64,000 bases of DNA from Candidatus Omnitrophota bacterium (GTDB lineage Bacteria; Omnitrophota; Gorgyraeia; JAZDFF01), in assembly GCA_043808095.1 (NCBI GenBank), contig JAZDFF010000015.1:2015-66014 (forward strand). The letters are read 5' to 3'. A program made the translations under genes and the position numbers. The notes under the pieces are model-generated. The model saw only the letters and a program-made list of their open reading frames with translations. It ran no database searches and had not been told where the DNA came from. This document shows positions 19,134-60,697 of this stretch, piece by piece (position 1 is the first letter of the stretch; each line of letters begins with the position of its first letter).

Positions 19134-19141
19134 ATCTTATC

Positions 19142-27390: not shown

Positions 27391-27392
27391 AT

Positions 27393-28568: not shown

Positions 28569-28785
28569 AACTCCTTATAAAATTATTTAATCTTAAGATA
28601 AAAATCCTCACCATAAATTGCTACAGAGGACTAAAGTAATTTCTACATGAAAATAGTAAATACCCGAACTTTACGATAGAGTTAATTATTGAATTTAATA
28701 AGACTAAATACAGACAACGAAAAAAATTGATATGTTAAAGAACGGGTTAAAATTTAATTTTTAGCAATACTTTTTAAGGATGTCG

Positions 28786-30333: not shown

Positions 30334-30356
30334 TCTTTAAGTTAATAATTTATTAA

Positions 30357-33354: not shown

Positions 33355-33363
33355 TGTTTGGTA

Positions 33364-35354: not shown

Positions 35355-35356
35355 TG

Positions 35357-37308: not shown

Positions 37309-38428
37309 TTCTTATTAAGCCTGAATATAAATCTTCTACTTTTTTAACATGGATCTTTATGTCAAATAATCCCTCTGCGCGTTTTCTCCCATTCTTACCA
37401 AATGTCTCTGCAACGACTCCATTTTCAAGAAGGTATTCTATCTTCTCAGCCATCCCCTTAAAATCCCTCGGAGTGAGTAAAAAACCCGTGATACCATCCT
37501 CTACTATCTCCGCTACCCCACCACCCCTAAAGGCAACTATAGCTCTTGCGCAAGCCATTGCTTCAATTAATACTCTCCCGAAAGGCTCACCTATAGAAGG
37601 AAGTACGAATAAATCTAAAGATGACATTATCTGAGGGGTATCCTCTCTATTTCCTAAAAATACAACTTTTTTTTCTATATTCAAATCTTTTGTTAATCTC
37701 CTTAGGTAATTCAAATATTTATTATCGTTAAAATAATCAATGCCTACGATTAAAAATTTCGTATTAGATATCTTTTGCGAAACTATCTTGGCCGATTTTA
37801 TAAAATATTCATAACCTTTCCAAGAAACAAATCTACCTACTGTACCTATTAAAAAATTATCTCCTCTATATCCTATCTCATTCCTAAAAGCCATTCTATC
37901 AATTTTCGTATTAAATCTATCTAAGTCTACGCCATTGTATATGAGAATAATCTTGTCCTTTGGAAATAACCACAAAAATCTATTTCTTACAGCCTTAGAT
38001 ATAATTATAATCCTGCTTGCTAATAGCCCAAGCATCAAATCTAGAATTCCTCCGGATTCGATATTCCTTACATGCCAAAAAAATGGAATTTTTGTAAACT
38101 TAGAACTAATGCCTCCTAAAAGAGTAATACCTGCTGTATAATTACAATGAATCAAATGTATATTATTCTGCCGTACAAATTCAATCAGGATTTTTATAGT
38201 TTTGATGGAATGGTAAATATTTAGCGGATTCTTTACTTTCTTTAAATTTATAATATTAATAGGGATGTTGAGGTTTTTAATCTTTTCTGTAAAATTTCCT
38301 TCAGAAGGTGCAACTACATAAGGTTTAAATTTAGTCCTATCCAAATTTTCTAAGAGATTAAGAAAACTTATTTCCCCACCGCCGATAATATTACCTGTGG
38401 TAACCAGATATAAAATATTCATAAACAT
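37298..38428 (-). CDS. Glycosyltransferase family 4
   Basis: 376 aa with EPFGRVLIEAMACARAIVA. Confidence 0.75.
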   Translation of the reverse strand: MFMNILYLVTTGNIIGGGEISFLNLLENLDRTKFKPYVVAPSEGNFTEKIKNLNIPINIINLKKVKNPLNIYHSIKTIKILIEFVRQNNIHLIHCNYTAGITLLGGISSKFTKIPFFWHVRNIESGGILDLMLGLLASRIIIISKAVRNRFLWLFPKDKIILIYNGVDLDRFNTKIDRMAFRNEIGYRGDNFLIGTVGRFVSWKGYEYFIKSAKIVSQKISNTKFLIVGIDYFNDNKYLNYLRRLTKDLNIEKKVVFLGNREDTPQIMSSLDLFVLPSIGEPFGRVLIEAMACARAIVAFRGGGVAEIVEDGITGFLLTPRDFKGMAEKIEYLLENGVVAETFGKNGRKRAEGLFDIKIHVKKVEDLYSGLIRNGI

Positions 38429-38451
38429 ATTTGATTTTTATTTTATAACAT

Positions 38452-39306
38452 TCATACTTTTCTTAAACTTATAATCACGTCCTCTGATAGATTCTTTAAA
38501 AAAAATAACTTATCTAATAAGATTTCTATCAAAAGGACTAATGCGAAAATGGTTCTTCTTTTATCCTGTTGTGGAGTACCAAATAGCAAAGCACCTCTTT
38601 TAATTTCCTCTACTTTGAATTTGCAATCACGAAAAATTCTTATCCATTCATTAAGGCTCCTTACGGAGATATGCCCATAGGCAATTTCTGAATGACTGTT
38701 ACCTAACAAACCAAAATTCGGATTTTCTATCTCTTTAGGGTAATCAGAATTTATTTTCCATGATTTCAGAAATAGAGGCCTTAATAACTTTTTCAGCCTT
38801 AAAATTAAAGTAGACTGATTAGGGGTAGTAATAATAGCCAACCCCTCCGGTTTAAGAATCCGATAAAACTCGTTTATTGCTCGCTCGGGGTTTCTTAAAT
38901 GCTCCAAAACTTCTATTGAAAGTAGAATATCAAAGTTGTTATTGGGAAAATTTAAACATTCTGCATTATCGATATTAAATATGGTATTTTTTGTTTGATA
39001 TTCTTCTTTTTTAAGATTACAGTAATATACCCTTGAGGGATCTAGATCAACTCCGTAAAATTCTAAATTATTTTCTTTGCCAAAATCTTGATTCAAATGA
39101 AAGATATTTGAGCCCAACCCACAGCCTATATCTATAATCCTGAGTGGCTCCTTTTTAATTTTAACCTCTTTTTGAAAGAGAGACGAGATCTTTTGAAATT
39201 TCTTCCACCAGAAATATGTTCTAGTATAGCTGATTGGCTTTTGAGCCTCTTTTATAAAATGCTTATTAATTGCTTCCAATGATAAACTTTCTTCTAATTT
39301 AGACAT
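38452..39306 (-). CDS. Class I SAM-dependent methyltransferase
   Basis: 284 aa with motif I IDIGCGLGSN. Confidence 0.65.
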   Translation of the reverse strand: MSKLEESLSLEAINKHFIKEAQKPISYTRTYFWWKKFQKISSLFQKEVKIKKEPLRIIDIGCGLGSNIFHLNQDFGKENNLEFYGVDLDPSRVYYCNLKKEEYQTKNTIFNIDNAECLNFPNNNFDILLSIEVLEHLRNPERAINEFYRILKPEGLAIITTPNQSTLILRLKKLLRPLFLKSWKINSDYPKEIENPNFGLLGNSHSEIAYGHISVRSLNEWIRIFRDCKFKVEEIKRGALLFGTPQQDKRRTIFALVLLIEILLDKLFFLKNLSEDVIISLRKV

Positions 39307-39341
39307 CTTAAAACTTTCAAAATAAGTTTTGGTTTTATGTT

Positions 39342-40430
39342 TTATTTAATGCTTCCAAGCAAATTGATATTCCTTTTATTGATAATATCTTCTAATACTA
39401 TTTTGAGTTGTTTACCAATAACCTCGGGAGTAAAATTTTGGATATATAATTGATAGCCAGCATCAGCTATGTTTTCAGCCAAACTTCTGTTATCTCTTAA
39501 AAGAAGTATAGCCCCTGCTAAGGCCTTAGAATCTGCTAAGGGGCAAAGAAGGGCATTCTGTCGGTCTGAAATTATCTCTCTGATAGCAAGGGTATCCCCA
39601 GTAATTAATGGCTTGCTCATCGCTAAAATCGAAATTACTCTATTAGAAATAATGCTATTGGCTTTTCTGGTATTTCCAAAGATACCTAAACAAATATCTG
39701 ATGCTGCAATATAATCGGGGACTTTGTTAAGCGGTACTTGATCTTCAAAAGAGATATTTTTAAATTCAGAACCCAGTTTTATAATCTCTTCGGGAATCTT
39801 ACCAACCAACTTGAATTTAATCTCAGGGTATGGTTGTAATAACTTAGCCGCCTCAATTACATACTCTAGGCCTACTTGCGGAGAGTAAGATCCAATACTC
39901 AAGACTAGAAAATCTTTATCGTTTCTATTGATTGCTTTAGGATAAAATAAGGAATTATCCGATCCTAAACGAACAACTTTAAACTTCTCTTCTCTTATTC
40001 CAAATTCTTGCTGAAAAAAGACTTTCTGGGCATAAGTATGTATAAATATAAAGTCGGCCAAAAAACAGCTAAATTTATCTAAAAAATGTAAATACTTTGC
40101 ATAGAAAGAACCTTCTTTTAGGGATTTTCTATCAAAGACTTCGGTATCATAGAAAGAAATAAAAGGATCAAAGATTAATGGTTTTCCTTGTATTAGCGTA
40201 AACAATCTCGCCAATGGAACGTTAGTTGCCCCAAACTCTGGAACAATAATAACATCGTAGTCTTTTCTAAACCTTAGATATTTGAAAATTAAACGTAAAT
40301 ACCTAATCCAAATCCTGCGTGAATTATCGTAACATTCGATAACTTCAACTCCATTTTCTCTAAGCCCTTTCCTTATAACTAAATTCCTTGGGTAATCTTC
40401 AGTATATGGCCCAAAATAACAAACCTTCAT
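39342..40430 (-). CDS. Glycosyltransferase (GT-B fold, GT1/GT4-like)
   Basis: 362 aa. Two-Rossmann layout but a weaker EX7E region. Confidence 0.5.
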   Translation of the reverse strand: MKVCYFGPYTEDYPRNLVIRKGLRENGVEVIECYDNSRRIWIRYLRLIFKYLRFRKDYDVIIVPEFGATNVPLARLFTLIQGKPLIFDPFISFYDTEVFDRKSLKEGSFYAKYLHFLDKFSCFLADFIFIHTYAQKVFFQQEFGIREEKFKVVRLGSDNSLFYPKAINRNDKDFLVLSIGSYSPQVGLEYVIEAAKLLQPYPEIKFKLVGKIPEEIIKLGSEFKNISFEDQVPLNKVPDYIAASDICLGIFGNTRKANSIISNRVISILAMSKPLITGDTLAIREIISDRQNALLCPLADSKALAGAILLLRDNRSLAENIADAGYQLYIQNFTPEVIGKQLKIVLEDIINKRNINLLGSIK

Positions 40431-40444
40431 AGTTTAACTTTAAA

Positions 40445-41509
40445 TTATAAGAAATTCTTATGCAACGCTTCCTTTTGTCCAAGAAAATGGATTAGTTCAT
40501 TATATTTGTTTAATCTACAAGGTGGGCATTTATGTAAATTAATCCGATTTATAATCTTTTCTCTTTTTTGACTATTCCATATCTGACTAAATGATTTTTC
40601 TTTCAGACTTCCAAAACTAAATCGAGGATCCCCCTTTAACTGACAGCACAAATATACTAGACAATCCGCGCCCACCGCGGCTATTAGATTGTGAGCCACG
40701 CAGCTACTATAGTTTCGTTCGAAAGCGCTCATCTCATCAAATCGATGCAACATAGGAATAACAGAAAAATTTTTATCTGAAAGCTTAAGTGATTTGAGTA
40801 CCAATCCTTCTATTTTAGGCATCATCCTCTCTAAGATTTTCTTGCCCGGTATATATACCGGCCTAATCTGAATATAATCTACCCCTACATCTTTGGCTAG
40901 TTTAGTTGCCTGATAGATTTGTGAATAATTCAAAGGGTGGACTAAAAAAGCTATGCCTATGGTAGGAGATTTCTTATCTTTTCTTAAACGGACTAGATAT
41001 TTTAAATTTTCGATGATTTTATCAAAATTATCTTGACTAAGATCTTTTGGTCTATGTAAAGAGGCATGACTCCTTCTATCTGTTGCATCTAAACTTATTC
41101 TTACAAAAGTACAATTTTTTATAATCTCTCTGCAGCATCCCTCTGTCATAAGTCCACCATTAGTTACTAGGCCAACTTCCATTTTCAATTCCTTTGCATA
41201 GCGTATAGCCCCTAAAGTTGCAGGATTCATTAAGGGCTCTCCACCTCCTGTAAAGATTATTGACTTTACATGCATCTGCCCTAACTCCCTAATTAGGTTA
41301 AACATAATTTTCCGAGGCATAAGTTTAGGTTTTTCCTTTTTAAAATTAGCATACATACACCAAATACAATTATGGTTACAGAGATTACTCGGGTCGAGCT
41401 CACAGGTTACAGGATAAATTTTTTTCCCCTTAGCTAATTTATTTAGAATAACTCGATGACTCAATATCTTTGCAGGATTAAATTGGTTAATATTCGTATT
41501 AGGTTTCAT
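40445..41509 (-). CDS. Radical SAM / SPASM-domain protein
   Basis: 354 aa. CNHNCIWCMY (CxxxCxxC) and C-terminal Cys-rich region (CLVYLCCQ...CPPCR). Confidence 0.75.
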   Translation of the reverse strand: MKPNTNINQFNPAKILSHRVILNKLAKGKKIYPVTCELDPSNLCNHNCIWCMYANFKKEKPKLMPRKIMFNLIRELGQMHVKSIIFTGGGEPLMNPATLGAIRYAKELKMEVGLVTNGGLMTEGCCREIIKNCTFVRISLDATDRRSHASLHRPKDLSQDNFDKIIENLKYLVRLRKDKKSPTIGIAFLVHPLNYSQIYQATKLAKDVGVDYIQIRPVYIPGKKILERMMPKIEGLVLKSLKLSDKNFSVIPMLHRFDEMSAFERNYSSCVAHNLIAAVGADCLVYLCCQLKGDPRFSFGSLKEKSFSQIWNSQKREKIINRINLHKCPPCRLNKYNELIHFLGQKEALHKNFL

Positions 41510-41513
41510 TAAA

Positions 41514-42947
41514 TTACTTTTTGAAAATTTTTCCCAACAATCTAATATCTCTAAAAGTAAGGGTTTTCAATAATATCAAAATAAAGAAATATACAAAAAT
41601 AGCAAGAATGATTAACAAAAATAAATTTATATTTTTAAATAACTGGATGAAACCTGCCATCAACAATGTCGCTAAAACTGGTCGAATACCAATCTTTATT
41701 AAGTTTAAGCGATGAATATTTTTAGATATTATATAGAAATACACTATAAAAAGTAAAATTATGGTTATTAATCTAGCTAAACTTGCCCCTAAGTAACTAA
41801 ACCGTGGTATCAATATAAGATTTAGGATAATATTTAAAATCAGCCCCCAGAAGATTACTATGGTGGCAGTTTTTTGTCTATTAGTAGTAGGTAAAAGTAT
41901 GGAGACTAAAGAAATTAGAAACATAAGCGCAAAACTCCAAGCCAAAATCTGTACACTGCCTGAAGATGCCAGGTACTTGTGGCCATACACTAAAAGAATT
42001 ATTCTGTCTGCGAGAAGACTCATGCCCATACCTAAAGGTAGTGCTAGAATCAAGAGGAATTGAAAAGACTTTTCATAATATTTGGCTAAAGACTCTCTGG
42101 AAGATTGATAAAGCCGGGAAAAAACTGGAAAAAGGGCAGTCGTTAAATTAACCGGGATAAATAAGAACACCGAAGTCAATGCTAAAGCAACTCCATAATA
42201 TGCAGTAGGAATGTCTCCTTTTATTGTTTTAAGTAAGGTTACGTCGATATTAAGAGCAAGGTTGGAAAATAAACCAAAAAAAGCAAAAGGAAGACTATCC
42301 TTCATCAGATTCTTCCAAAATACCAAATCAATCTCAAATTTGGGTCTGGCAAATTTTTTAATAATCAAACCAAAACTCAAAATAATATAGATTAGTGCCC
42401 CAACTAAGTAAGACAAAAGCACTTCTTTCAATCCGCCCTTTAAAATAATTGCTACAACGACTCCTATTAGGATACTAAGCGTTAATAAAAAATTTAATAA
42501 AGCAACAAATCCCATTTTTTCATATGCCATAAAGATAGAAATAAAATAACTCCCGAATGATTTTAATATAATATATAATGCCAAAATATAAACTGCTATT
42601 TTAACTATCTGGGCATAATTAATAATATTTACCATCATAAAGATTAAGATAAACGTAAATACCGATAAAGCAGCTTTAATAATGACCGCGCTGCTTAGAT
42701 ATTTACTTGTTATTTTTTTATCTCGGGCTACTTCTCTTACTACCAAATTACTTAAACCTAGATCAGGAAGTACTAAGAATAGACATGTAAAATAAATGGC
42801 AAAGGTATATTGACCAAACTCTACCTTTCCTAAATATTTAGCAAGGGTTACGGAGAGAATAAAAGCTAAAATACTGGAGGCGATGGTGGAAATATTTAAG
42901 AAAAGGGTATTTCTGGTTATTTTAGACGCATCATCTATTTCTATCAT
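41514..42947 (-). CDS. Wzx-like oligosaccharide flippase (MOP/polysaccharide biosynthesis protein family)
   Basis: 477 aa, ~12-14 TM helices. Typical of the polysaccharide-biosynthesis flippase family. Confidence 0.7.
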   Translation of the reverse strand: MIEIDDASKITRNTLFLNISTIASSILAFILSVTLAKYLGKVEFGQYTFAIYFTCLFLVLPDLGLSNLVVREVARDKKITSKYLSSAVIIKAALSVFTFILIFMMVNIINYAQIVKIAVYILALYIILKSFGSYFISIFMAYEKMGFVALLNFLLTLSILIGVVVAIILKGGLKEVLLSYLVGALIYIILSFGLIIKKFARPKFEIDLVFWKNLMKDSLPFAFFGLFSNLALNIDVTLLKTIKGDIPTAYYGVALALTSVFLFIPVNLTTALFPVFSRLYQSSRESLAKYYEKSFQFLLILALPLGMGMSLLADRIILLVYGHKYLASSGSVQILAWSFALMFLISLVSILLPTTNRQKTATIVIFWGLILNIILNLILIPRFSYLGASLARLITIILLFIVYFYIISKNIHRLNLIKIGIRPVLATLLMAGFIQLFKNINLFLLIILAIFVYFFILILLKTLTFRDIRLLGKIFKK

Positions 42948-43014: not shown

Positions 43015-43842
43015 TCATTTATATCTCTTAAACAGTCCGATACTAAATCCGATTGCATAACTGAGATTTGCCAAAAAGCCGATTAATTGAAAAGTCAACA
43101 GTAGTCGTATCAGCCTAACAATAAACCGAATAATTCTAAATGGCAAACTTCTTCTTGGTACAAAGTCTGTAACGTCCGGGGGAGGAACCTCAAAGATCAA
43201 ATTAGGGAAGTATCTACTATCGTGGGCTGCCCCTACCCCATGTTGAAACCTAGCCTTTAATAACTCACCTAAATTTCTATACATAGGATGGAAAACCCAG
43301 GTGTTGGGAACTACAACTATCCTGTGTCCAGACTGCCGCACCCTATATCGAAACTCTGGGTCATCTCCTCTAATCAAATTTCCGTTTTCTCCGCCTAATT
43401 CTAAATAAAGTTTCTTTAAAATAGCCATCCCTGCATGAGTGACCATATCCGTTTCAGTGATCTTATTTACTATCGGGAATTGAGAACGATATAGTATCTT
43501 AACACAATGCTTTTGAAATTCATTAGAATCAGGCGGTATTAATTGGGAGGCGCCGGTTATGCCTATAGTTTTATCTTCAATCAATGGCTTAATTAAGTTC
43601 TCGACTACCTTCTCTGTCCCCAGGCGTACATCATCATCAAAAAAGACTAAAATTTCGCCCTTTGCTAGTTTGGCTCCCACATTATGCGCCTTGCTACATG
43701 GACTTATGCCCTTTACCACATGAACCTCAAAGTCCTGAAAGCTCTGTTTTGAGAGGTCTTCTAATAACTTCGGAACATTTCCCTGGCGATACCCATCTAA
43801 TGAAGGTATTATAACGGAAACTAAAGGATTACGGACTGACAA
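43015..43842 (-). CDS. Glycosyltransferase family 2
   Basis: 275 aa. VSVIIPSLDG...FFDDD (DxD) in a GT-A fold. Confidence 0.75.
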   Translation of the reverse strand: MSVRNPLVSVIIPSLDGYRQGNVPKLLEDLSKQSFQDFEVHVVKGISPCSKAHNVGAKLAKGEILVFFDDDVRLGTEKVVENLIKPLIEDKTIGITGASQLIPPDSNEFQKHCVKILYRSQFPIVNKITETDMVTHAGMAILKKLYLELGGENGNLIRGDDPEFRYRVRQSGHRIVVVPNTWVFHPMYRNLGELLKARFQHGVGAAHDSRYFPNLIFEVPPPDVTDFVPRRSLPFRIIRFIVRLIRLLLTFQLIGFLANLSYAIGFSIGLFKRYK

Positions 43843-45238
43843 TATGTATCCCCTTTCTGGTTATGCGTAAGCGCGTTTTATCCTCTATTGACCAACGCAG
43901 ATACCTAATAAGATTCTCCCACTTAGGTGCCCCCACCTGCATCAATTCATCGGCCCATCGCCGGAGTTGACTCCGGCTCCTTTCGGCAGTATAGTAGGGC
44001 TGGGGTAAATCCGTCAGCCAATATTCGTCATTAATCATTCTTTTGGTCTTAGCTAATTCATATAAGGCGGTCCCTGGAAAAACCATGGTTAGTTGAACTG
44101 CGCGAAAATCTGGCTTCAACCTTTCCAAAAGCCGAACCGTCTCGGAAATAGTCTCCTCAGATTCGTTAGGATTTCCAACCATCAAAAGGATTTTAGTCTT
44201 TATACCAGCTTCCCTAGTCAACTCGAAGGCATTTAAGATTTGGCCCACTGTTGTCTTTTTGTTTATAGTATCTAAGATAGTGGCAGAAGCAGATTCTACG
44301 CCGTAGGCAATAGAAAAACATCCAGCTTGCTTCATCCATCCTAACATCTCCGCAGATACAAAATCGACATGGGTCTCGCAGTCCCAAATAAGGTCTAACT
44401 TCCTTGATAATATTCCTTTGCAAATTTCAATTACCCTGTTTTGATCAACGGTGAAGGTATCATCTCCAAAATTGATATAGCCGCAACTGTATTTTTTAGA
44501 TAAAATCTCTAAATCGTCGATGACTTTTCGAGCCGATTGTTTTCGCCATTTACAACCCCAGAAAATATTGGTCGAACAGAATTGGCATCTATTAATGCAG
44601 CCTCGTGAAGTGACTACCGTAGCAAACCTTAACTTTTCAAGTCTTTTACCCCGGTAGTTGATTCCTCTAAGAATGCCATATCTTTGATATCTATCTAAAT
44701 CAAATAAATGATAGGCTGCGGGAGGAAGTAAATCTAAATCTTCTATCAACTCCACATCTTCATTCTTTATAACCTCTTGATCTTCTTTAAAAGCTATGCC
44801 TTTAATTTCTGCAAGCGAAATTCCCTTCTCCCAAGCGCGAATTAAATTTAAAAAAGTCCTCTCTCCTTCACCTAATACTACTACGTCTACAGGTAAATTT
44901 TTTAATATTTGCTTATACATAAAGAAAGGGTGTACTCCCCCTAAAACAACCTTGATAGCAGGATTTATCTCTTTTATAATACGGCTCAAGCGATAAACAC
45001 TAGCCCTCCGTTCGGTCAAACAGGTGATACCTACAACCTGAGGACTCTTTTCTTCAATAATTCTTCTTACCTTGTTCCATTGGCAGAATAGAAGATCTGC
45101 TACCTCAATGTCAAAACCTTCTCGTAATAAGACCGCAGCCAGAGAGGCAATACCAAGGGGCGGAGTATAGGAAGGCATAGAAGGCTTATCGTACCTACTC
45201 GTATTAAATTCAGGAGGATTAACTAATAATATTTTCAC
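43829..45238 (-). CDS. B12-binding-domain radical SAM protein (class B rSAM, probable methyltransferase or rearrangement enzyme)
   Basis: 469 aa. N-terminal cobalamin-binding Rossmann-like domain and an rSAM core with RGCINRCQFCS (CxxxCxxC). Confidence 0.75.
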   Translation of the reverse strand: MKILLVNPPEFNTSRYDKPSMPSYTPPLGIASLAAVLLREGFDIEVADLLFCQWNKVRRIIEEKSPQVVGITCLTERRASVYRLSRIIKEINPAIKVVLGGVHPFFMYKQILKNLPVDVVVLGEGERTFLNLIRAWEKGISLAEIKGIAFKEDQEVIKNEDVELIEDLDLLPPAAYHLFDLDRYQRYGILRGINYRGKRLEKLRFATVVTSRGCINRCQFCSTNIFWGCKWRKQSARKVIDDLEILSKKYSCGYINFGDDTFTVDQNRVIEICKGILSRKLDLIWDCETHVDFVSAEMLGWMKQAGCFSIAYGVESASATILDTINKKTTVGQILNAFELTREAGIKTKILLMVGNPNESEETISETVRLLERLKPDFRAVQLTMVFPGTALYELAKTKRMINDEYWLTDLPQPYYTAERSRSQLRRWADELMQVGAPKWENLIRYLRWSIEDKTRLRITRKGIHIVSP

Positions 45239-45262: not shown

Positions 45263-46423
45263 TTAACTTTTAGTAAGTTCTCTCAAAATTGCTTCAACCT
45301 TCCTTGCGGATATTATCCAGGTACGTTGTTCTAATATTGCCTCTCTGCCATGCTTACCTATTTTTTCTCTAAGTCCTTCATCTTTAAGCAATCTAACAAT
45401 CGCCCCTGTTAACTTCTGCGCATCACTTGCTTCTGTCCAAACTACACCATCGACTCTGTCTAAAAAATCTTTACACCATTCTAAACCGCTGACTACTACT
45501 GGCTTAGCACAGGCCAAATATTCATAGAGCTTAATTGGATCTGCTGTATAGGGTATAACCGGTTTAAAGAAAACTGCGCAGATATCAAATGCATTTATGT
45601 ATTTAGGAACATCCTCATAGGGAATCTCTCCAGAAAAAAATATCTTATCGTCTAAACCCAAATCTGTAACCAGCTTAATTAACTCTTTTTTCATAATACC
45701 TTCACCCACAATGATAAACTTAGTATTAGGCAGTTCCTTAAGAATAAAGGGTGTGCTATTTATTAGATAATCCACCCCTTGATGGGGATAGAGTGAACCA
45801 ACCATCCCAACGTAATAACAATCTTGCCTGAGATTTAATTGCGTTCTGACCTCTTTAGTATTCATAGGACGAAATAATTCTGCATCTGCACCGCAGGGCA
45901 CCACGATTATCTTATGGGAAGGTAAATTCAGGAATTTGCTTAGGCGTTGTTTAGTGAGGTTAGTTGTGGTTACTACCCTATCCGAAAAAATTAGAGAAAC
46001 TGCTGAAATGAAATAAAGTATCTTATACTTGATAAGCTCGAATCCTCTTTTTTTTATCTCTGGAATCGAGATAAAAATTTGCACTTCTATAACCAGGGGA
46101 CGGCTTACTAATTTAGCAAACAAAAAACTCGTCAGCGACCAACCGTCTCGAGAATATATGATATTCGGCCTTTTTCTAAGGCTATGAAACATAAGATAAA
46201 CCAATAATAACAAACTGTAGCTTATGATATTCAATATAGGTACTTCTATTAAAGGCACATAGACAACCTGGGCTTGCGTTTTCTGCTTATACTTGCCCCG
46301 ACGGGGAGCAAAAACTAATATGTCGTGTCCTAACTCTTTTAGATTCTGAGCTATCTCCATAATATGTCTTACATCCCCGGCCTGTCTGCTCAGGTCATTA
46401 TAACAGGTATAAAATATTCTCAT
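45263..46423 (-). CDS. Glycosyltransferase family 4
   Basis: 386 aa, GT-B fold, with a C-terminal EYLACAKPVVVS region. Confidence 0.7.
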   Translation of the reverse strand: MRIFYTCYNDLSRQAGDVRHIMEIAQNLKELGHDILVFAPRRGKYKQKTQAQVVYVPLIEVPILNIISYSLLLLVYLMFHSLRKRPNIIYSRDGWSLTSFLFAKLVSRPLVIEVQIFISIPEIKKRGFELIKYKILYFISAVSLIFSDRVVTTTNLTKQRLSKFLNLPSHKIIVVPCGADAELFRPMNTKEVRTQLNLRQDCYYVGMVGSLYPHQGVDYLINSTPFILKELPNTKFIIVGEGIMKKELIKLVTDLGLDDKIFFSGEIPYEDVPKYINAFDICAVFFKPVIPYTADPIKLYEYLACAKPVVVSGLEWCKDFLDRVDGVVWTEASDAQKLTGAIVRLLKDEGLREKIGKHGREAILEQRTWIISARKVEAILRELTKS

Positions 46424-46508: not shown

Positions 46509-47282
46509 TTATTTTGTGCAAACTGCTATCAAGTTTGTGCTATTTTTAAAATTAAATTTTGATATTTCAAAGTCTGCCTCGGTTATATCATCTCGGGAAA
46601 CAGCACCTGTAAAAGGAGCAATTTTAGCCTGAACTCTTCCAAGAACCCAATCCCTTGTCTTAATAGGAACTAGATATCTAAGACCCAAAAAATCCATCTT
46701 GGCAGCAAATCGCTTCACCTGTTCAAATTTACCAACTACATCGACCTTTAAGCTCTGGCCATAAATATCTACCTGGGTAAAATAACTACTCAACAACTGA
46801 CGATACTCTTCAATGGTTAATTCATTAATATGATTGGGGTTAAAGATTTGACCCCGTCTCAATGATGGGGGTTTTTTGTTTGGCGTAGAACCAATATAAA
46901 GACCACCTGGCTTTAAGACTCTGAGCATCTCGGATAGATATTTCTTTTGGTCTTGGATATGTTCAATGACCTCAAGAGAAACTACCGTATCAAAAGTATT
47001 ATCCGAAAGGCCCAAGTTACAACAATCCATAACTTTATATTCTACGTTAACCTTGGAAAAATGCCTCCTAACATAATCTATTGCTTTAACTGAATAATCC
47101 ACGCCTATTACTTTCTCTGCTGTCTGTGCCAGGAGCCATGGCCCTCTTCTGGCGCCGCAACCGGCATCCAGAACTAATTTACCAGAAACAAATTGCTGGA
47201 CAAGCTCATATCTAGCTAAACTTGTCCTAAGATTCAGATTATCCCTTGAATCATAAAATGCCTTTTTAGCAATGCGGCTCAT
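46509..47282 (-). CDS. Class I SAM-dependent methyltransferase
   Basis: 257 aa with motif I LDAGCGARRG. Confidence 0.7.
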   Translation of the reverse strand: MSRIAKKAFYDSRDNLNLRTSLARYELVQQFVSGKLVLDAGCGARRGPWLLAQTAEKVIGVDYSVKAIDYVRRHFSKVNVEYKVMDCCNLGLSDNTFDTVVSLEVIEHIQDQKKYLSEMLRVLKPGGLYIGSTPNKKPPSLRRGQIFNPNHINELTIEEYRQLLSSYFTQVDIYGQSLKVDVVGKFEQVKRFAAKMDFLGLRYLVPIKTRDWVLGRVQAKIAPFTGAVSRDDITEADFEISKFNFKNSTNLIAVCTK

Positions 47283-48790
47283 CTTATAACTTTTTCCCTT
47301 AAGACCGCCCGCTTTACCATATCCAGTTCATCCATTCTCAAAATTAAGGCGGCAACCAAAAATACAGCTGCCCCTATAAGTATGGTAATTAATACGGGCA
47401 AGCGAATAATACACAGGATAATAACCATTATAGAAGAGGCCACGGCGGTTTTAGCAAAGGTTATAAAAATAGGCCTTTTTTCTTTTATTCCCATTTTCTT
47501 CGCCAGGGACCCTGCCAACAGCAAACAGATAACCGTTCCGTAAATGGAAAAAGCCAAAGCCAGGCCCCCTACTCCTAAGATATCTTTTAAGATTAGCCCT
47601 AAGATTATATTAATTATTATCCCGATTAGGCCTATTTTAAGCGGAGTAACCATATCCTGGAGAGAATAGAATGCGCGTATCAAAATTACATTAGCGCAAA
47701 ATCCAAGTAGTCCCCAGGAATAATAAAAAAGGGCATCTGCCGTCATCCCAACAGCCTGCGGGCCAAATTCTCCCCGCGCAAATAGTAGTTCAATGATTGG
47801 CCTGGCTAATATCATCAGTGCAGCTGATAAAGGAATTCCGATAAAAATTATTATCCTCAAAGAAGCGAAAAAAGTCTCTTTTAGATTAATCCAATCTCTG
47901 TCGACTTTCTGCTGCGCCATTACGGGAAAGGCAACTGTTCCTATAGTGGCACCTATAAAATCTACTACCAGATTTATCGGGTAGCGCGCGAAATTTAGCG
48001 CAGCGATGCTTCCTTCTGTGAGCGTAGAGGCAAAAATCCGTATGAAGACGTAGTTAATCTGAAATAGAATATTAACCGCCAAGACGGGAAGCGCCAGTCT
48101 GATTACTTTCTTAAGGGCCGGGTGATTGGCGTTAAAATAAAAAATGTTTCCGGTTTTAATTTTCCTGATAGCTATCCACTGTATAAAAAGCTGAAGCCCG
48201 CCGCCTGCTATTGCTCCAAAAGCTAATGAATAAATGCCTATCTGTTTCGATAAAAGCAAAATCACTGTAATTACACCTAAAGGAAAGACGAAAGATGCAA
48301 TTGCCGGAGTTACAAAACGCCGGTGAGCATTAAGCACGGCATTGGAAATGATTACGAGGCTCAAGATAATCACTAAGGGAGAGGTTATGCGGCTAAGTTT
48401 TGTTGACAACTGCGCTGTAGAAATAGGAAATCCGGGGGCTAAGAGTTTAATTAAACCGGGTGAGAAAACAAAATAAAAAAAGGTAACTACGGCAAGGCTT
48501 ATTACTGAAATGCCAATCAAACTGCTGACCAAATTCCAGGCCTGCCTCTTGTCTTCAATAGTCAATAATTCCGTTAATATGGGAATTAAAACAAAAAATA
48601 TTACGCCTCCGAACATAAAATCGCTGACAAAGGCAGGGATGGTTAAAGCAACGAGATAGGCATCCACTCCGGTAGTTGCTCCAAACTTTGCAGCAATGAG
48701 CATCTGAGTTGCTAAACCAAGAAAGGAGCGTATAAGATTGGCAGCTAATAAAATACTGATTGCTTGAGATAGTTTTTGCGTAAAGGACAT
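47279..48790 (-). CDS. MurJ/MviN-family flippase (MOP superfamily)
   Basis: 503 aa, 14 TM helices, with a MurJ-like N-terminus (ISILLAANLIRSFLGLATQMLIAAKFGA). Confidence 0.7.
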   Translation of the reverse strand: MSFTQKLSQAISILLAANLIRSFLGLATQMLIAAKFGATTGVDAYLVALTIPAFVSDFMFGGVIFFVLIPILTELLTIEDKRQAWNLVSSLIGISVISLAVVTFFYFVFSPGLIKLLAPGFPISTAQLSTKLSRITSPLVIILSLVIISNAVLNAHRRFVTPAIASFVFPLGVITVILLLSKQIGIYSLAFGAIAGGGLQLFIQWIAIRKIKTGNIFYFNANHPALKKVIRLALPVLAVNILFQINYVFIRIFASTLTEGSIAALNFARYPINLVVDFIGATIGTVAFPVMAQQKVDRDWINLKETFFASLRIIIFIGIPLSAALMILARPIIELLFARGEFGPQAVGMTADALFYYSWGLLGFCANVILIRAFYSLQDMVTPLKIGLIGIIINIILGLILKDILGVGGLALAFSIYGTVICLLLAGSLAKKMGIKEKRPIFITFAKTAVASSIMVIILCIIRLPVLITILIGAAVFLVAALILRMDELDMVKRAVLREKVIR

Positions 48791-48836: not shown

Positions 48837-50102
48837 TTATTCCAAAAACTTCAATAGTCTGGATTCCGGATAATATTTTTTGATTAAACTTATTAATCCG
48901 TAGGCCACGAATATACTCAAAAATGGCTCCAAAGGCACTCGATATCGTGTGCCACTCGAACCATCGGACCCAAAAAAAATGAGACTAACAATAGTAAAAT
49001 AGATGGCTAATAGATGGATAATCCAAGTTTGCCTTGAATGTTTCAAAGAAAGAAAAAATCCTAAGACCATAAACGGAAAAAATAATATTCCATAAAGAAA
49101 AGTTATTATTGTATTCCTTAATGTGCTTGAATACCCCCATTGCCAGAATTTCAGGAATTTAAAATAGAGCAGTATTAAAAATTGTTTTGGATTTTCTTTG
49201 ATGAATTCCAAGGCCAACTTAGTATATCTTCGGTCTAAATCTATTTCAGATAAATTAGTTTTTATCCTGATACTATCAGGCATATACCATGTCCCACGCT
49301 TATCTACTTTCTTGAAGACCTCAGGATTATTACCCCCCCACAGGTTACGTCCTAAACCAATGTAAACAGGGATAAACTTGTGAAATACTCTGTAATTTCT
49401 ATAGGCCCAAGGGGTAATCACTAATGACATAAAAGAAATAATTAATAAAGTCATCCTAAGGACATCTTTTTTTGTGCGTAAATTTAACCAAAACCAAAGA
49501 AATATAAAAAATGGAAAGGCCAGTGCAATGGGTCTGGTAAGATTAGCCACACCCAGCCAAAGTCCGGCTCCCAAACACTGCTTCCAAGACGGCTTATCAA
49601 TAAATTTAACGACCCAGAGGACCGCTAAGAGAAGCAACAAGGTAAACAACGTCTCAGTTAACAAATATCCTGTAAGCAAGCAAAGATAGGGATGACCTGC
49701 CATAATTAATGCTGATAATAATCCTACGGCCTTACTAAATAGCCTGGCCCCAATAAGGTATCCTACAAGACAACTTAGAGAACCAATAAATATTTGTATC
49801 AGTTGAGCAATCCAATGCCTATAACCAAAAACCTTATATATTGCCGCTAAAAATAAAGGATAAAAAGGTCCGCGGTAGGCAAGGGCTGTCCCATCGATGG
49901 TAAAACCCTTTCCTTCGATTAAACTGTAGGCAATCTTATCATCTCCGCTGGCGTCGGCAGTATAAATCCCATCCCATCCCACAACTAAATATATGGTGGC
50001 TAATCTTGCCAGAAGAGCAACTACAAATATTATGCCCAATATACATCTAATTTTACTCTCAAAAAAATGATAAAAAAATTTATGTAGTTTCACGGCGGTC
50101 AA
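48837..50102 (-). CDS. GT-C membrane glycosyltransferase (ArnT/PMT, GT39/GT83-like), putative
   Basis: 421 aa polytopic protein. A DG-containing first periplasmic loop follows the first TM helix, as in the ArnT/PMT family. Confidence 0.5.
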   Translation of the reverse strand: MTAVKLHKFFYHFFESKIRCILGIIFVVALLARLATIYLVVGWDGIYTADASGDDKIAYSLIEGKGFTIDGTALAYRGPFYPLFLAAIYKVFGYRHWIAQLIQIFIGSLSCLVGYLIGARLFSKAVGLLSALIMAGHPYLCLLTGYLLTETLFTLLLLLAVLWVVKFIDKPSWKQCLGAGLWLGVANLTRPIALAFPFFIFLWFWLNLRTKKDVLRMTLLIISFMSLVITPWAYRNYRVFHKFIPVYIGLGRNLWGGNNPEVFKKVDKRGTWYMPDSIRIKTNLSEIDLDRRYTKLALEFIKENPKQFLILLYFKFLKFWQWGYSSTLRNTIITFLYGILFFPFMVLGFFLSLKHSRQTWIIHLLAIYFTIVSLIFFGSDGSSGTRYRVPLEPFLSIFVAYGLISLIKKYYPESRLLKFLE

Positions 50103-50173: not shown

Positions 50174-51481
50174 TTATGCAAGGGCTTGCCTCTCTGTCCC
50201 CTCTTCAGCGGAAGAAGAGAGCTGTGGTATCATCACTATGATAGCAGTCAAAAACCAGAAAGGCTCCATAATCCGAACAACAATAAATGTCTGAGAGGAA
50301 AAGGAATGGAAAAATAGGCCAATAAAACCAGCCAAAAATCCTAAAGCCAATCCCTGGCTCCAATCATCTCTTATATTCCTGAGGGTCCATAAACCATTTC
50401 GAAAAATATTTATCAAAAGCCAGATAAATACCCAAAGCCCGATGATTCCTGTCTCTGCGAGTACGTAAGGCAATTGTGTATCCAAGACCGGCACACCGCC
50501 TACTCCGAAACCTAAAATTGGGCTTTCTTTTAACACCTTAAATATAAATTTCCAACTTTCAACTCGATGGGCTGCAGATTCATCTAATACGATACGTGCT
50601 CCTAATGCTTCATATTCCACCCCCGGAATAAATGTTGACTTTATCCGCTCAATTACGCTATTTGGTAAAAGAAATGGAGCGAGCATTACAAATAATAATA
50701 ATATAATAATGAGCGGCCATCTCATTCTATTGGTTAAAATTATAAAAGCCAAATACATAAAAATAAATCCCAAGTAACTACCTCTGGATAGGGTGAACAA
50801 AAAAGAGGGGAAGATAAAAAGACAAAGCCAACCTGCAAAAAACTTCCAGATGCCGGATTTGCTATATAAAAAAACCCCTAAGCTGACCGCAAATAGTAAT
50901 AGTAAATATCCGCCTAAGGTGTTCGGCTCACCACCGATTTCCTTTTCAAAGGGCGCACTAAGTCTTCCCTCTATTCCCAATTCGCCGATCTTAGTTGAAG
51001 TATAGACACAGACGAGAAAACATGTAATCAATAAAAAAGCTATAAATCTTTTTGCTTGTTTCATATTATCAAGATTGTTAATTACAAGAAAATAAATCAT
51101 AAAGTACTCAATATATTTCAAGACATGAAATAAACCAGAAAAAGGCGTAACCGCCCCCTTTATAATACCAAAGAGCGTAGAAAGAATACTTATAGATATA
51201 AAGACCGTGATTGGTAAATTCAAAGGAGATTTCTTTAATAGACCAAATTCCTTATTAACAGCCATCTTTACTAGCCAAGTAAAGAAAACTACCAAAACTA
51301 AAATATCATCTATTCTTACTACTACTGCCCTTTCCCCAAGCTGAGCAACTGATAACTCCGGAGAAAATAACATTGAGAAGATTAATACAATAATCCCAAA
51401 GTCAGTTTTTACTAATGTAATGAGACAAACAAACAGTCCGCTTAGTAAAATAATTGGTAAAAACTCATGCAAACCAATCAT
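50174..51481 (-). CDS. O-antigen ligase / Wzy-like polymerase family membrane protein
   Basis: 435 aa, ~10-12 TM, with the Wzy_C-type loop motif FTLSRGSYLGF. Confidence 0.7.
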   Translation of the reverse strand: MIGLHEFLPIILLSGLFVCLITLVKTDFGIIVLIFSMLFSPELSVAQLGERAVVVRIDDILVLVVFFTWLVKMAVNKEFGLLKKSPLNLPITVFISISILSTLFGIIKGAVTPFSGLFHVLKYIEYFMIYFLVINNLDNMKQAKRFIAFLLITCFLVCVYTSTKIGELGIEGRLSAPFEKEIGGEPNTLGGYLLLLFAVSLGVFLYSKSGIWKFFAGWLCLFIFPSFLFTLSRGSYLGFIFMYLAFIILTNRMRWPLIIILLLFVMLAPFLLPNSVIERIKSTFIPGVEYEALGARIVLDESAAHRVESWKFIFKVLKESPILGFGVGGVPVLDTQLPYVLAETGIIGLWVFIWLLINIFRNGLWTLRNIRDDWSQGLALGFLAGFIGLFFHSFSSQTFIVVRIMEPFWFLTAIIVMIPQLSSSAEEGTERQALA

Positions 51482-53726: not shown

Positions 53727-53738
53727 ATTGGAATGGTA

Positions 53739-54773: not shown

Positions 54774-54857
54774 TATTTATTTAACTATAATATACACAAT
54801 CACTTAGGCCCTGTCAAGCAAAATGAAATTCAAAATACGACGAGCCTTAGTGAGCAA

Positions 54858-55670: not shown

Positions 55671-55744
55671 ATTATTTTAACTTACTCACTTACTCATTAT
55701 AATAAAGATTAACGAAATTGTCGAATAAAACAATCATTTAGATT

Positions 55745-58710: not shown

Positions 58711-58765
58711 TTATGGGATGATTTTAATAAACCTGAAAAGGCATTTTAAACGCTAATTTTCGCGA

Positions 58766-58781
58766 ATCTAACGCTAATATT
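58766..58781. promoter_or_regulatory. 16-bp perfect palindrome AATATTCGCGAATATT within a CGCGAAT-word promoter-region repeat
   Basis: Read directly. Lies upstream of the nucleotidyltransferase-like gene start (58710). The same region carries GAATCTAACGCTAAT, which is also present at 9216..9230. Confidence 0.5.
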
Positions 58782-58851
58782 CGCGAATATTCACTCTATT
58801 ATTAGCGTAAATTCGCGTTTGATTAGCGAGAATTCGCGTTCAAGAAGGTTT

Positions 58852-60600: not shown

Positions 60601-60697
60601 TTCGTCTATTTTATTAACGGATGCATACGCCTACCAACAAGGCAGACAGGGATTTCTGCGAATTCGCTTGTTTGACTATCTGATAAAGTTAAAGGGC

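Follow-up and report, generated by a model that had tools for sequence, protein, structure and literature searches.

A cobalamin-domain radical SAM gene in a Wzx/Wzy-type polysaccharide locus of an uncultured Omnitrophota bacterium and its possible part in glycan tailoring

Class B radical SAM enzymes bring about alkylations and rearrangements that are chemically demanding, and most members of the family are uncharacterised. To our knowledge, the members known to act on sugars all come from antibiotic, nucleoside-analogue or hopanoid pathways. What, then, might a gene of this class be doing among the glycosyltransferase (GT) genes of a cell-surface polysaccharide locus? The question is raised by a 64 000 nt stretch of a Candidatus Omnitrophota contig (JAZDFF010000015.1), referred to here as the window, in which a sequence-only reading had placed a class B enzyme at 43829..45238, embedded between GT genes, and had predicted C-methylated or otherwise unusual sugars.

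The target gene is an intact ORF of 469 aa on the minus strand (43829..45238), with a GTG start and an N-terminus, VKILLVNPP, that agrees with the MKILLxNPP of its homologs. At E≤0.01, Pfam finds a B12-binding domain and a Radical_SAM domain in the protein and nothing else: the predicted cobalamin-binding Rossmann domain is PF02310 at residues 23-132 (44843..45172, minus strand; 85.4 bits, the cutoff being 32.1), and the radical SAM core is PF04055 at residues 208-371 (44126..44617, minus strand; 70.6 bits against 29.5). Within the core, the CxxxCxxC motif of the [4Fe-4S]/SAM cluster reads C214-I-N-R-C218-Q-F-C221 (44576..44599, minus strand), and residues R212, G213, C214, C218, C221, G313, E315 and G355 do not vary across 108 sequences. 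The target keeps the family consensus at 72 of the 77 positions with a conservation of 85% or more, deviating at P174A, R234Q, E242D, R290H and G358N, and its AF2 model (pLDDT 95.2, pTM 0.92) has a beta-alpha Rossmann-type pattern in the N-terminal region. The HMM check proposed with the sequence-only reading therefore returned both of its domains above cutoff, and the target is almost certainly a class B (cobalamin-domain) radical SAM enzyme.

The presence of a Rossmann-like domain alone is no proof of cobalamin binding, as AprD4 and ArsL illustrate (PMC12931638). The domain of the target carries the motifs G70-I-T72-C-L74, G100-G101-V-H103 and G123-E-G-E126; across the 108 sequences, G70 is conserved in 106, T/S72 in 101, G101 in 107, and both G100 and H103 in every one. 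The cobalamin-pocket motifs are spaced by 43 and 26 residues, compared with 42 and 27 in MetH (MetH residue numbers from PMC9204698), and P26-P-L-G29 occupies the place of the His loop (DxHxxG). The absence of DxHxxG had been named beforehand as a sign against the assignment, and the target does lack it, but the other cobalamin-pocket motifs are kept. Nor is that absence valid as a refutation, because cobalamin is base-off and His-off in all the solved cobalamin-dependent radical SAM enzymes (PMC9204698, PMC12931638). A G-x-S/T-x-L motif and a G-G motif without the His ligand is the pattern of this base-off/His-off mode. As well as retaining these motifs, the family profile aligns through its N-terminal domain with the cobalamin domains of OxsB, TsrM, CysS and TokK, which are four proven cobalamin binders, and its G-G motif matches those of TsrM, TokK and MgmA. 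Taken together, these sequence features suggest that the target binds cobalamin. No cobalamin uptake or synthesis genes were found among the window ORFs scanned with Pfam, which counts against cobalamin dependence.

The target lies within a Wzx/Wzy/Wza/Wzc polysaccharide locus of ~40 kb (~17.2-57.6 kb of the window), which contains an initiating phosphoglycosyl transferase, at least six GT4 and two GT2 enzymes, at least six class I methyltransferases, two MOP flippases, Wzy, a GT-C, two copies of Wzc, and Wza. The parts of a Wzx/Wzy-dependent locus (initiating transferase, GTs, flippase, polymerase, co-polymerase and exporter) are all in one cluster, and were recognised in Pfam as Glycos_transf_4, GT4, GT2, Wzx/MurJ-type flippases, Wzy_C, GNVR/AAA_31 and Poly_export. 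The Pfam-annotated genes, all on the minus strand, include the initiating polyprenyl-phosphate phosphoglycosyl transferase (21139..22206; Glycos_transf_4, 136 bits), a Wzx-type flippase (41514..42947; Polysacc_synt, 118 bits), a class I SAM methyltransferase (46509..47282; Methyltransf_11, 82.6 bits), a MurJ-family MOP flippase (47279..48790; MurJ 272 bits, and TIGR01695 286.4 against 235.55), a GT-C fold glycosyltransferase of the PMT_2 type with nine hydrophobic segments by hydropathy (48837..50102), a Wzy-like polymerase (50174..51481), a Wzc co-polymerase/tyrosine kinase (51789..53726) and a Wza exporter (53739..54773). Among models for XrtA/PEP-CTERM exopolysaccharide systems, the exporter model TIGR03027 is just over its cutoff (183.1 against 180), the ATPase model TIGR03015 reaches 215-224 against 324.5 and the chain-length determinant model TIGR03007 reaches 154 against 279; the window ORFs scanned contained no exosortase.

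The immediate flanks of the target are a GT4 and a GT2, so that its placement between GT genes of a polysaccharide locus was correctly read from the sequence. Directly upstream, and separated by a 24-nt gap, is GT4a (45263..46423, minus strand; Pfam Glycos_transf_1/Glyco_transf_4). On the other side is GT2a, a 275-aa GT-A glycosyltransferase (43015..43842, minus strand; Pfam), the start of which overlaps the 3′ end of the radical SAM gene by 14 nt, with the Shine–Dalgarno-like AAAGGGGA preceding its TTG start codon. GT2a matches generic GT2 models weakly (35.8 bits, Pfam) and belongs to a small family of 135 proteins in which D69-D70-D71 is invariant.

Part of this arrangement recurs elsewhere. 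Glycan loci surround seven of the nine close homologs that were looked up (41-53% identical to the target), often in the GT4-rSAM-GT2 order, which loci L085 and L090 have in common (with overlapping stop and start codons in L085) and which thus recurs in independent lineages. Over its full length, GT2a is 47-54% identical to the GT2 of loci L085, L086, L087 and L001; GT4a shares 34% identity with the GT4 that immediately precedes the radical SAM gene in L085 and L086; and the MurJ-family flippase is 34-37% identical to MurJ-type genes near the radical SAM gene in L087 and L001. In a neighbour-joining tree bootstrapped on Kimura distances, the target groups with glycan-locus proteins, with weak bootstrap values of 27-47%.

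A glycan context for the whole family was considered and rejected. It is not transferable that far because only 17 of the 61 more distant loci (those of at least 10 kb) have two or more glycan genes, in a count made from six-frame ORFs and a labelled seed set, which is conservative for divergent GT and methyltransferase genes; the profile for the locus scan was built from a 27-sequence alignment, as the 108-sequence one was too diverse. A tight Planctomycetota clade, 48-50% identical to the target, also stands against it, adjoining PabB/PabC-like genes with no glycan genes (L005, L006), and most of the 30-40% identical relatives in Desulfobacterota and Geobacterales are without glycan neighbours. 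An obligate pairing of the radical SAM gene with GT2a was likewise rejected: any B12-radical SAM gene lies within 10 kb in only 8 of 80 GT2a-family loci (6 of the 22 that extend at least 5 kb on both sides), and an ortholog of the target in just one. The gene is therefore better seen as an optional tailoring gene. Polysaccharide cassettes in Omnitrophota have been reported to be hypervariable (bioRxiv 10.64898/2026.06.07.730766). Arrays of three to four class B paralogs are present in glycan-type loci L004, L022, L035, L049, L050 and L083, as expected for site-specific decoration. We also considered a three-component module, in which a polyprenyl-phosphate-sugar synthase GT2, a flippase and a GT-C would act together and the radical SAM enzyme would modify an Und-P-sugar; it was not supported, given the weak scores of GT2a on generic GT2 models, the mere 20% identity between the PMT_2 proteins of the window and L004, and the lack of any PMT_2 gene within 10 kb in L001 and L087.

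Whilst the enzyme class is known, by the curated family models the target falls in no characterised family. As proxies for its relation to the characterised class B methylases, we used NCBIfam scores together with profile and fold matches to the PDB, and no curated NCBIfam family reaches its cutoff. The best-scoring is BchE (TIGR02026), at 229.7 bits against a cutoff of 481.35, with a match that spans positions 2-396 of the 497 in the model and leaves the C-terminal ~100 unmatched; ApyD, a RiPP enzyme, is second (156 bits) and HpnJ (TIGR03471) third, at 152 bits against 577.6. Curated class B families other than BchE score 53-156 bits against cutoffs of 251-750, and HpnJ, HpnR, PhpK, Sden_1168, ApyD, ladderane, BzaD, RiPP C-MT, MgmA/MJ_0865, TsrM-type, KedN5, AprD4 and ArsL are each below cutoff. 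The top Foldseek match is MgmA/QCMT (PDB 9ccb; E 4.4e-26, TM 0.69/0.77, 22% identity), followed by TsrM, AprD4, OxsB, CysS and TokK, and the nearest solved structures are a mixture of methylases (MgmA, TsrM, CysS, TokK) and non-methylases (AprD4, OxsB). No biochemical data on close relatives of the target were found in the literature searched. We counted against methylation that no curated methylase family was matched and that BchE and HpnJ, the first and third HMMs, are non-methylases.

The analysis shows the domain architecture, the retained motifs, the fold, the type of locus and, within the closest clade, a conserved gene context, and these are consistent with a model where the target is a functional, soluble, cobalamin-dependent class B enzyme that provides an optional tailoring step in a Wzx/Wzy-dependent exopolysaccharide pathway; we give this model a probability of about 0.45. 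The cytoplasmic [4Fe-4S] cluster held by C214, C218 and C221 would reductively cleave SAM to a 5′-deoxyadenosyl radical, which would remove a hydrogen atom from an unactivated carbon, either in a sugar or in one of its substituents. The substrate could be a nucleotide-sugar donor or, more likely, an undecaprenyl-diphosphate-linked repeat unit before flipping, the latter being favoured because of the GT4a-rSAM-GT2a order and the overlapping reading frames. Methylcobalamin, bound base-off/His-off in the N-terminal Rossmann domain, would give a methyl radical to the substrate radical, a second SAM would re-methylate the cobalamin, and the polysaccharide of some strains would thereby gain a C-methyl (branched) sugar. 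We infer both the glycan substrate and the methyl transfer. A role in glycan tailoring is probable, and C-methylation of a sugar, which we propose more tentatively, is the most likely chemistry. Of the predicted link to C-methylated or unusual sugars, the class of the enzyme and its setting in a polysaccharide locus have stood, whereas methylation and a C-methyl sugar product are not established, the top curated family being a non-methylase that is itself far below cutoff and the nearest structures being of both kinds.

The same cobalamin-dependent radical chemistry might act on the glycan without methylating it. An enzyme of this sort would catalyse a rearrangement, ring contraction, cyclisation or oxidation to give a contracted-ring, carbocyclic or otherwise rearranged sugar unit, with HpnJ (hopanoid glucosamine) and OxsB (a deoxynucleotide sugar) as models, together with BchE and GrsA/B, which act on other substrates. 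The first and third places of BchE and HpnJ in NCBIfam point this way, as does the standing of OxsB among the best structural and profile matches; BchE, HpnJ and the ladderane enzyme fall together in the main class B sequence cluster (PMC9204698), and GrsA/B are B12-binding radical SAM ring synthases (bioRxiv 10.1101/2023.10.20.563219). However, these HMM scores are all far below cutoff, the C-terminal ~100 positions of BchE find no counterpart, most characterised class B enzymes are methylases (PMC9204698, PMC12931638), and multi-paralog arrays in glycan loci better fit site-specific decoration, all of which makes a non-methylating enzyme unlikely. We think it rather unlikely, too, that the substrate is something other than the polysaccharide, such as a lipid (the polyprenyl carrier, a membrane lipid as for Hgm/Grs, or a lipid anchor), a peptide or a small metabolite, with the position in the glycan locus incidental or reflecting co-regulation of envelope functions. 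The PabB/PabC-linked Planctomycetota clade and the Desulfobacterota and Geobacterales relatives without glycan neighbours would accord with such a substrate, B12-radical SAM lipid methylases and ring synthases exist, related radical SAM lipid enzymes occur in Omnitrophota (bioRxiv 10.1101/2023.10.20.563219), and the RiPP enzyme ApyD is the second-best HMM. Set against this, GT genes bracket the target and one of them overlaps its 3′ end, the GT4-rSAM-GT2 order is repeated in independent lineages, the target branches with glycan-locus proteins, and its neighbours in the window include neither a precursor-peptide-like ORF nor a gene for lipid synthesis.

A further explanation, which we consider very unlikely, is that the N-terminal Rossmann domain no longer binds cobalamin and that the target is, like AprD4, a radical SAM 1,2-diol dehydratase or deoxygenase with a sugar as its substrate. 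AprD4 (PDB 6fd2) has the highest TM-scores (0.75 and 0.77) and the highest PDB profile score (138 bits), its alignment runs through the C-terminal subdomain, with the WxCETR and AGC..GVES motifs in common, and its substrate is an aminosugar (the title of the 6fd2 entry names paromamine). Yet the N-terminal domain of the target is well over the PF02310 cutoff and has its G-x-T-x-L and G-G motifs at MetH spacing; the family N-domain aligns to real cobalamin domains and not to that of AprD4, of which the radical SAM core alone aligns; the NCBIfam AprD4 model reaches 76 bits against a cutoff of 500, in the core only; and no AprD3-like reductase gene adjoins the target. Lastly, the target could be a genuine BchE (bacteriochlorophyll cyclase) or, as the sequence-only reading had itself raised, a paralog of the MiaB/RimO-type methylthiotransferases. 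Although BchE is the top HMM, and JGI labels several homologs 'anaerobic magnesium-protoporphyrin IX monomethyl ester cyclase', its score is less than half the cutoff and the window holds no pigment genes. The methylthiotransferase model TIGR00089 scores 35 against 251 bits, neither flanking domain of those enzymes (N-terminal MTTase, C-terminal TRAM) is detected by Pfam at E≤0.01, and the Foldseek TM-scores to MiaB and RimO (0.60 and 0.54, at 14-16% identity) are below those of every class B match. The sub-threshold scores and domain content effectively refute both identities.

For the preferred reading, glycan tailoring by methyl transfer, the closest known parallels are enzymes of antibiotic biosynthesis. 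GenK-type enzymes modify molecules that contain sugars while these are being assembled, and their genes lie among those for glycosyltransferases; the substrate carbons of GenK, GenD1/GntE, Fms7 and MoeK5 are sugar carbons, and MoeK5 acts on a lipid-phospho-linked glycan. These four, from the gentamicin (GenK, GenD1/GntE), fortimicin (Fms7) and moenomycin phosphoglycolipid (MoeK5) pathways, are listed as carbon methylases of aminoglycoside and moenomycin biosynthesis (PMC9204698, PMC12931638). They have the same predicted architecture of B12 domain and radical SAM core as the target, which is likened to them by architecture and proposed role, and the MoeK5 substrate is the nearest chemical analogy to the Und-PP-linked repeat unit proposed here. 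Their genes belong to actinomycete secondary-metabolite clusters, whereas the target comes from an uncultured anaerobe, in a Wzx/Wzy/Wza/Wzc locus for cell-surface polysaccharide. MgmA, the methyl-coenzyme M reductase glutamine C-methyltransferase, is a true cobalamin-dependent Csp3 methylase that aligns in its G-G motif and radical SAM core, but its substrate is a protein and its N-terminal 95 residues are unaligned by sequence. BchE resembles the target in that its model covers both the B12 domain and the radical SAM core, but it is a non-methylase whose pigment genes are missing around the target. AprD4, an enzyme of apramycin biosynthesis, has homology through the C-terminal subdomain and a sugar substrate, but does not bind cobalamin (PMC12931638). 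HpnJ, which is associated with hopanoids and for which contraction of a glucosamine ring has been proposed (PMC9204698), offers the case of a class B enzyme on a lipid-linked sugar; it is a non-methylase, the target is far below its cutoff, and no hopanoid genes accompany the target.

A broader and more doubtful reading is that uncultured anaerobes modify lipid-linked repeat units by cobalamin-dependent radical chemistry and so make surface-polysaccharide sugars with new carbon skeletons. The lineages concerned would be Omnitrophota, Planctomycetota and Armatimonadota, and possibly also DPANN archaea and CPR bacteria with three to four paralogs per locus, and the sugars could be C-methyl branched or, more radically, ring-contracted or carbocyclic through an HpnJ/OxsB-like rearrangement. 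If so, this would be a strain-variable class of glycan tailoring without a characterised example, predicting sugars not yet seen in polysaccharides and linking the variation of surface glycans to the supply of corrinoids in organisms that are believed to depend on hosts. Should the clade prove to be repeatedly in surface-polysaccharide loci, and present or absent between otherwise similar loci, B12-dependent radical chemistry would be a means by which uncultured anaerobic lineages diversify their surface glycans. Being compact, the GT4-rSAM-GT2 module would suit a glyco-engineering host. Our literature search found nothing relevant on B12-radical SAM enzymes in EPS, CPS, O-antigen or LPS loci, which is weak evidence of absence, as most subscription journals were outside its scope.

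The target is not the only radical SAM gene in the window. A second class B gene, cut by the right edge (62901..64000, minus strand), has a reading frame open to the edge that encodes the C-terminal 365 of 519 aa. Its earlier description as a truncated B12-type enzyme is borne out by PF02310 and PF04055 in the full-length protein of 519 aa (P0121), which belongs to this contig of 87,630 bp and was recovered, 100% identical, by a homolog search. With the target it shares only 25% identity. An exact-sequence look-up with four proteins of the contig (three window ORFs and P0121) found no record. The second radical enzyme of the polysaccharide locus is a radical SAM/SPASM enzyme (40445..41509, minus strand; Pfam PF04055 and PF13186), which the sequence-only reading had overlooked, along with a further SPASM-domain radical SAM gene at 30357..31511 and an AhbD/PqqE-like, SPASM-related radical SAM gene at 61470..62543.

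The open reading frame at 43829..45238 on the minus strand is intact and encodes a soluble protein of 469 aa with zero hydrophobic segments. Its GTG codon is the real start, as the encoded N-terminus, VKILLVNPP, agrees with the MKILLxNPP with which its homologs begin. Pfam places a B12-binding domain (PF02310) at residues 23-132 (85.4 bits, cutoff 32.1) and a radical SAM core (PF04055) at residues 208-371 (70.6 bits, cutoff 29.5), the latter with the cluster motif C214-INR-C218-QF-C221. The sequence-only reading, a class B radical SAM enzyme between glycosyltransferase genes of a polysaccharide locus, is thus borne out on both counts, the flanking genes being GT2a (43015..43842) downstream and GT4a (45263..46423) upstream, both on the minus strand. 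The protein agrees with the family consensus at 72 of the 77 positions conserved at 85% or more, and its five departures (P174A, R234Q, E242D, R290H and G358N) leave the cofactor motifs unaffected. Cysteines beyond CxxxCxxC recur in a family alignment of 108 sequences, namely C73 (94/108), C273 (102/108), C307 (107/108) and C287 (75/108); the last three are common to AprD4 (ELCQ, WWCETR, AGCVG), while MgmA has none of these three and OxsB keeps only the C273 equivalent.

From approximately 17.2 to 56.5 kb every gene lies on the minus strand, and a plus-strand GT2 gene (56676..57581) closes the locus at approximately 57.6 kb; together, these genes form a Wzx/Wzy-type polysaccharide assembly line. 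The left end carries a second Wzc-like gene (17238..19133), an AAA_22 ATPase (19142), an FkbM methyltransferase (20233), the initiating Glycos_transf_4 phosphoglycosyl transferase (21139), followed by a PIG-L deacetylase, a DegT aminotransferase and WbqC, and a GT4 gene (26218). In the middle are a SPASM radical SAM gene (30357..31511) overlapping by 4 nt a second DegT aminotransferase (31508..32692; best NCBIfam models PseC, LegC, RfbH and DesI, all below cutoff), four class I methyltransferases alternating with four GT4 genes, a second SPASM radical SAM gene (40445..41509) and Wzx (41514). Near GT4a follow a methyltransferase (46509), a MurJ-family flippase (47279) and a PMT_2 GT-C protein (48837), and the right end holds Wzy (50174), a Wzc-like gene (51789..53726), Wza (53739) and two further AAA_22 ATPases (54858 and 55745). 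Three minus-strand frames of 391-515 aa (28786..30333, 27393..28568 and 24705..26246) had no Pfam or NCBIfam match; with its approximately ten hydrophobic segments, the 515-aa product may be a second polymerase, a ligase or an acyltransferase-like membrane protein.

The TTG start of GT2a (43842) sits 14 nt within the 3′ end of the radical SAM gene and is preceded by AAAGGGGA, an arrangement that suggests translational coupling of the two genes. The SPASM/DegT pair (30357..32692) is reminiscent of the DesI/DesII pathway, in which deoxysugars arise through aminotransfer and radical deamination; the DesII model was absent from the top matches of the 30357..31511 protein and gave only 39 bits on the 40445..41509 protein. 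Regulation and export parts are doubled, at 15195..19957 and 51789..56539, with two Wzc-like proteins, three AAA_22 ATPases of approximately 265-270 aa (19142, 54858 and 55745) and a 609-aa AAA_22 and HD-domain fusion (15195..17024). The locus exporter scored 183.1 bits, barely above the cutoff of 180, with the XrtA/PEP-CTERM exporter model. A PEP-CTERM label is nevertheless unproven, because the two ATPases scanned (54858 and 55745) reached 215-224 bits against a TIGR03015 cutoff of 324.5, the chain-length determinant resembles PEP-CTERM-locus proteins at a score below cutoff, and no exosortase was found among the frames scanned in the window. Housekeeping genes (LpxB, NadE, ribosomal protein S2 and PtsI) occupy the region left of 17 kb. 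The G+C content is 0.32-0.38 across the central glycan cassette (20001..42000) versus 0.42-0.45 at the housekeeping end; such dips typically accompany horizontal exchange or hypervariability of polysaccharide cassettes.

The closest database proteins, though numerous, are just ~50% identical to the target. Precomputed gene calls showed glycan loci for seven of nine proteins 41-53% identical to it: P0027 (locus L001; Wza, Wzc, Wzy, methyltransferase, AsnB, radical SAM, MurJ, GT4, GT2), P0034 (L003; divergent from a block of deacetylase, Wzx, FemAB, methyltransferase, DegT and GT4), P0068 (L004; four class B paralogs, and consecutive GT2, radical SAM, MurJ and PMT_2), P0003 (L085; GT4, radical SAM and GT2, their stop and start codons overlapping), P0007 (L090; GT4, SPASM radical SAM, GT4, radical SAM, GT2, FemAB, methyltransferase, deacetylase), P0005 (L086) and P0031 (L087). 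Along its entire length, GT2a shares 47-54% identity with the GT2 proteins of L085, L086, L087 and L001; GT4a is 34% identical to the upstream GT4 of L085 and L086, and the MurJ-type flippase 34-37% identical to its L087 and L001 counterparts. L085 is an ABC-transporter-type (Wzm/Wzt) glycan locus, and also encodes a 751-aa protein (4263..6518) combining B12-binding, radical SAM and FkbM-type methyltransferase (Methyltransf_21) domains.

The remaining two of the nine proteins, P0021 and P0020, come from one Planctomycetota lineage, in which the gene adjoins PabB-like and PabC-like genes. They belong to a tight Planctomycetota/Brocadiaceae clade (L002, L088, L089, L005 and L006; 48-50% identical to the target) with chorismate-binding (PabB/TrpE-like), class IV aminotransferase (PabC-like) and sigma-54 response regulator neighbours. 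As no glycan genes lie beside the gene at these five loci, the function of this clade may differ from that of the target. In a neighbour-joining tree the non-glycan proteins formed a separate tight clade, and the target clustered with the glycan-locus proteins P0003, P0004 and P0024, then P0005 and P0007, at weak bootstrap values of 47% and 27%.

The glycan association is not general. In a set of 80 loci from species-representative genomes, whose proteins share 29-48% identity with the target, only 17 of the 61 loci of at least 10 kb had two or more glycan-type genes, in a scan that is conservative for divergent glycosyltransferase and methyltransferase genes; Desulfovibrio, Geobacter and most archaeal loci had fewer than two. 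Thirteen loci hold two to four class B paralogs, several in glycan-type settings. Arrays of three or four paralogs within 10-20 kb (L004, L022, L028, L035, L049, L050 and L083) occur in Bathyarchaeia, Woesearchaeota, Omnitrophota and a further bacterium, several among glycosyltransferase, methyltransferase and DegT genes, and a GT-rich Patescibacteria locus (L069) has two copies. Such arrays suggest site-specific decoration.

A reciprocal metagenome scan used the GT2a family, which is small, its 135 members all being 39% or more identical and sharing an invariant DDD motif. It returned 80 loci, only eight of which had a B12-radical SAM gene within 10 kb (6 of the 22 loci flanked by 5 kb or more on each side), and the single ortholog-level score came from the L001 contig again. 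GT2a is therefore a general component of such loci and the radical SAM gene an accessory in a minority, which fits an optional decoration step and the reported hypervariability of polysaccharide cassettes in Omnitrophota genomes (bioRxiv 10.64898/2026.06.07.730766). At L115 and L118 a different, lower-scoring class B lineage lies directly 46-73 nt downstream of the GT2a ortholog, which suggests that B12-radical SAM genes were recruited independently beside this glycosyltransferase.

The AlphaFold model of the target is confident (mean pLDDT 95.2, pTM 0.92), and its top Foldseek match in the PDB was MgmA, the MCR glutamine C-methyltransferase (9ccb; E 4.4e-26), followed by TsrM, AprD4, OxsB, CysS and TokK. 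No curated NCBIfam family was reached, every score being far under cutoff: BchE was best (229.7 bits, cutoff 481.35, model positions 2-396 of 497), followed by ApyD (156), HpnJ (152), a ladderane enzyme (141), two P-methyltransferase families (141 and 138), a RiPP C-methyltransferase family (124) and BzaD (122). Given these scores, the name ‘anaerobic Mg-protoporphyrin IX monomethyl ester cyclase’ borne by some homologs in JGI looks like over-annotation. The possibility of a methylthiotransferase-like paralog, raised from the sequence, falls away, since that model gave 35 bits against a cutoff of 251, and MiaB and RimO ranked behind the class B matches (TM 0.60 and 0.54, 14-16% identity). A true BchE or methylthiotransferase is effectively excluded.

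The sequence-only reading would have abandoned the assignment had a DxHxxG-like region been missing; that test is not valid, because all solved cobalamin-dependent radical SAM enzymes bind the cofactor base-off, His-off (PMC9204698, PMC12931638). In the target the His loop is replaced by P26-P-L-G29. The remaining MetH pocket motifs, G802-x-S804-x-L806 and G833-G834 (PMC9204698, PMC12931638), correspond to G70-I-T72-C-L74 and G100-G101, with spacings of 43 and 26 residues versus 42 and 27 in MetH, and between 101 and 108 of the 108 family sequences retain G70, T/S72, G100 and G101. A Rossmann-like domain can exist without cobalamin binding, as in AprD4 and ArsL (PMC9204698, PMC12931638), and AprD4 has both the best TM-score and the best profile score; however, the N-terminal domain of the family profile aligns with OxsB (from position 28), TsrM (21), CysS (25) and TokK (65), and TsrM, TokK and MgmA share its G-G motif, whereas AprD4 aligns only over positions 199-429. 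Cobalamin binding by the target is accordingly predicted as likely, and an AprD4-like dehydratase acting without cobalamin is very improbable.

The gene lies between two glycosyltransferases of a lipid-linked assembly pathway, a context conserved within its own clade. The enzyme would be cytoplasmic, its substrate being a nucleotide sugar or, more probably, the Und-PP-linked repeat unit at the stage between GT4a and GT2a; a 5′-deoxyadenosyl radical would take a hydrogen atom from the substrate, and methylcobalamin would then hand a methyl group to the unactivated carbon. We put the probability of methylation at roughly 0.45, mostly because of base rates, as the majority of characterised class B enzymes are methylases, among them the aminoglycoside and moenomycin enzymes GenK, GenD1, Fms7 and MoeK5 (PMC9204698, PMC12931638). 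A cobalamin-dependent rearrangement or oxidation after the manner of BchE, HpnJ, OxsB or Grs seems unlikely set against those base rates; in its favour, BchE and HpnJ are among the top HMM matches. That the substrate is not a glycan at all is improbable for a gene so placed; the sister clade outside glycan loci, and the existence of B12-radical SAM lipid methylases and ring synthases (bioRxiv 10.1101/2023.10.20.563219), speak for it. With methylation as the tentative preference, the C-methyl sugars earlier predicted for this polysaccharide are plausible.

The target is an uncharacterised member of a well-known enzyme class, and its gene already carries a generic annotation (NCBI record P0001, from a contig of 87,630 bp: ‘MAG: radical SAM protein [Candidatus Omnitrophota bacterium]’). 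Its clade, and the recurrent, optional placement in Wzx/Wzy loci of uncultured anaerobes, appear undescribed: a full-text search found no papers dealing with B12-radical SAM enzymes of EPS, CPS, O-antigen or LPS loci, which is weak evidence of absence as subscription journals were mostly outside its coverage.

A second, truncated B12-radical SAM gene had also been proposed at the right edge, and rightly so: read by hand, the minus-strand frame 62901..64000 stays open up to the window edge, and its full-length product, recorded from the same contig as P0121 (519 aa), carries PF02310 and PF04055. P0121 and the target are distant paralogs, with 25% identity. The right end (57556..64000) looks like a separate module, which includes the P0121 gene together with an NTP_transf_5 gene (57556..58710), an ABC exporter with fused ATPase (58852..60600), an AhbD/PqqE-like radical SAM gene (61470..62543) and a 106-aa Arg/Lys-rich frame matching no family (62581..62901). 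This module may serve peptide or cofactor maturation and stand apart from the glycan locus. Within it, a minus-strand frame of 124 aa (61028..61402) appears PD-(D/E)XK-like by eye, and a minus-strand frame of 140 aa flanking the glycan locus (13502..13924) matches the PD-(D/E)XK family PF13366.
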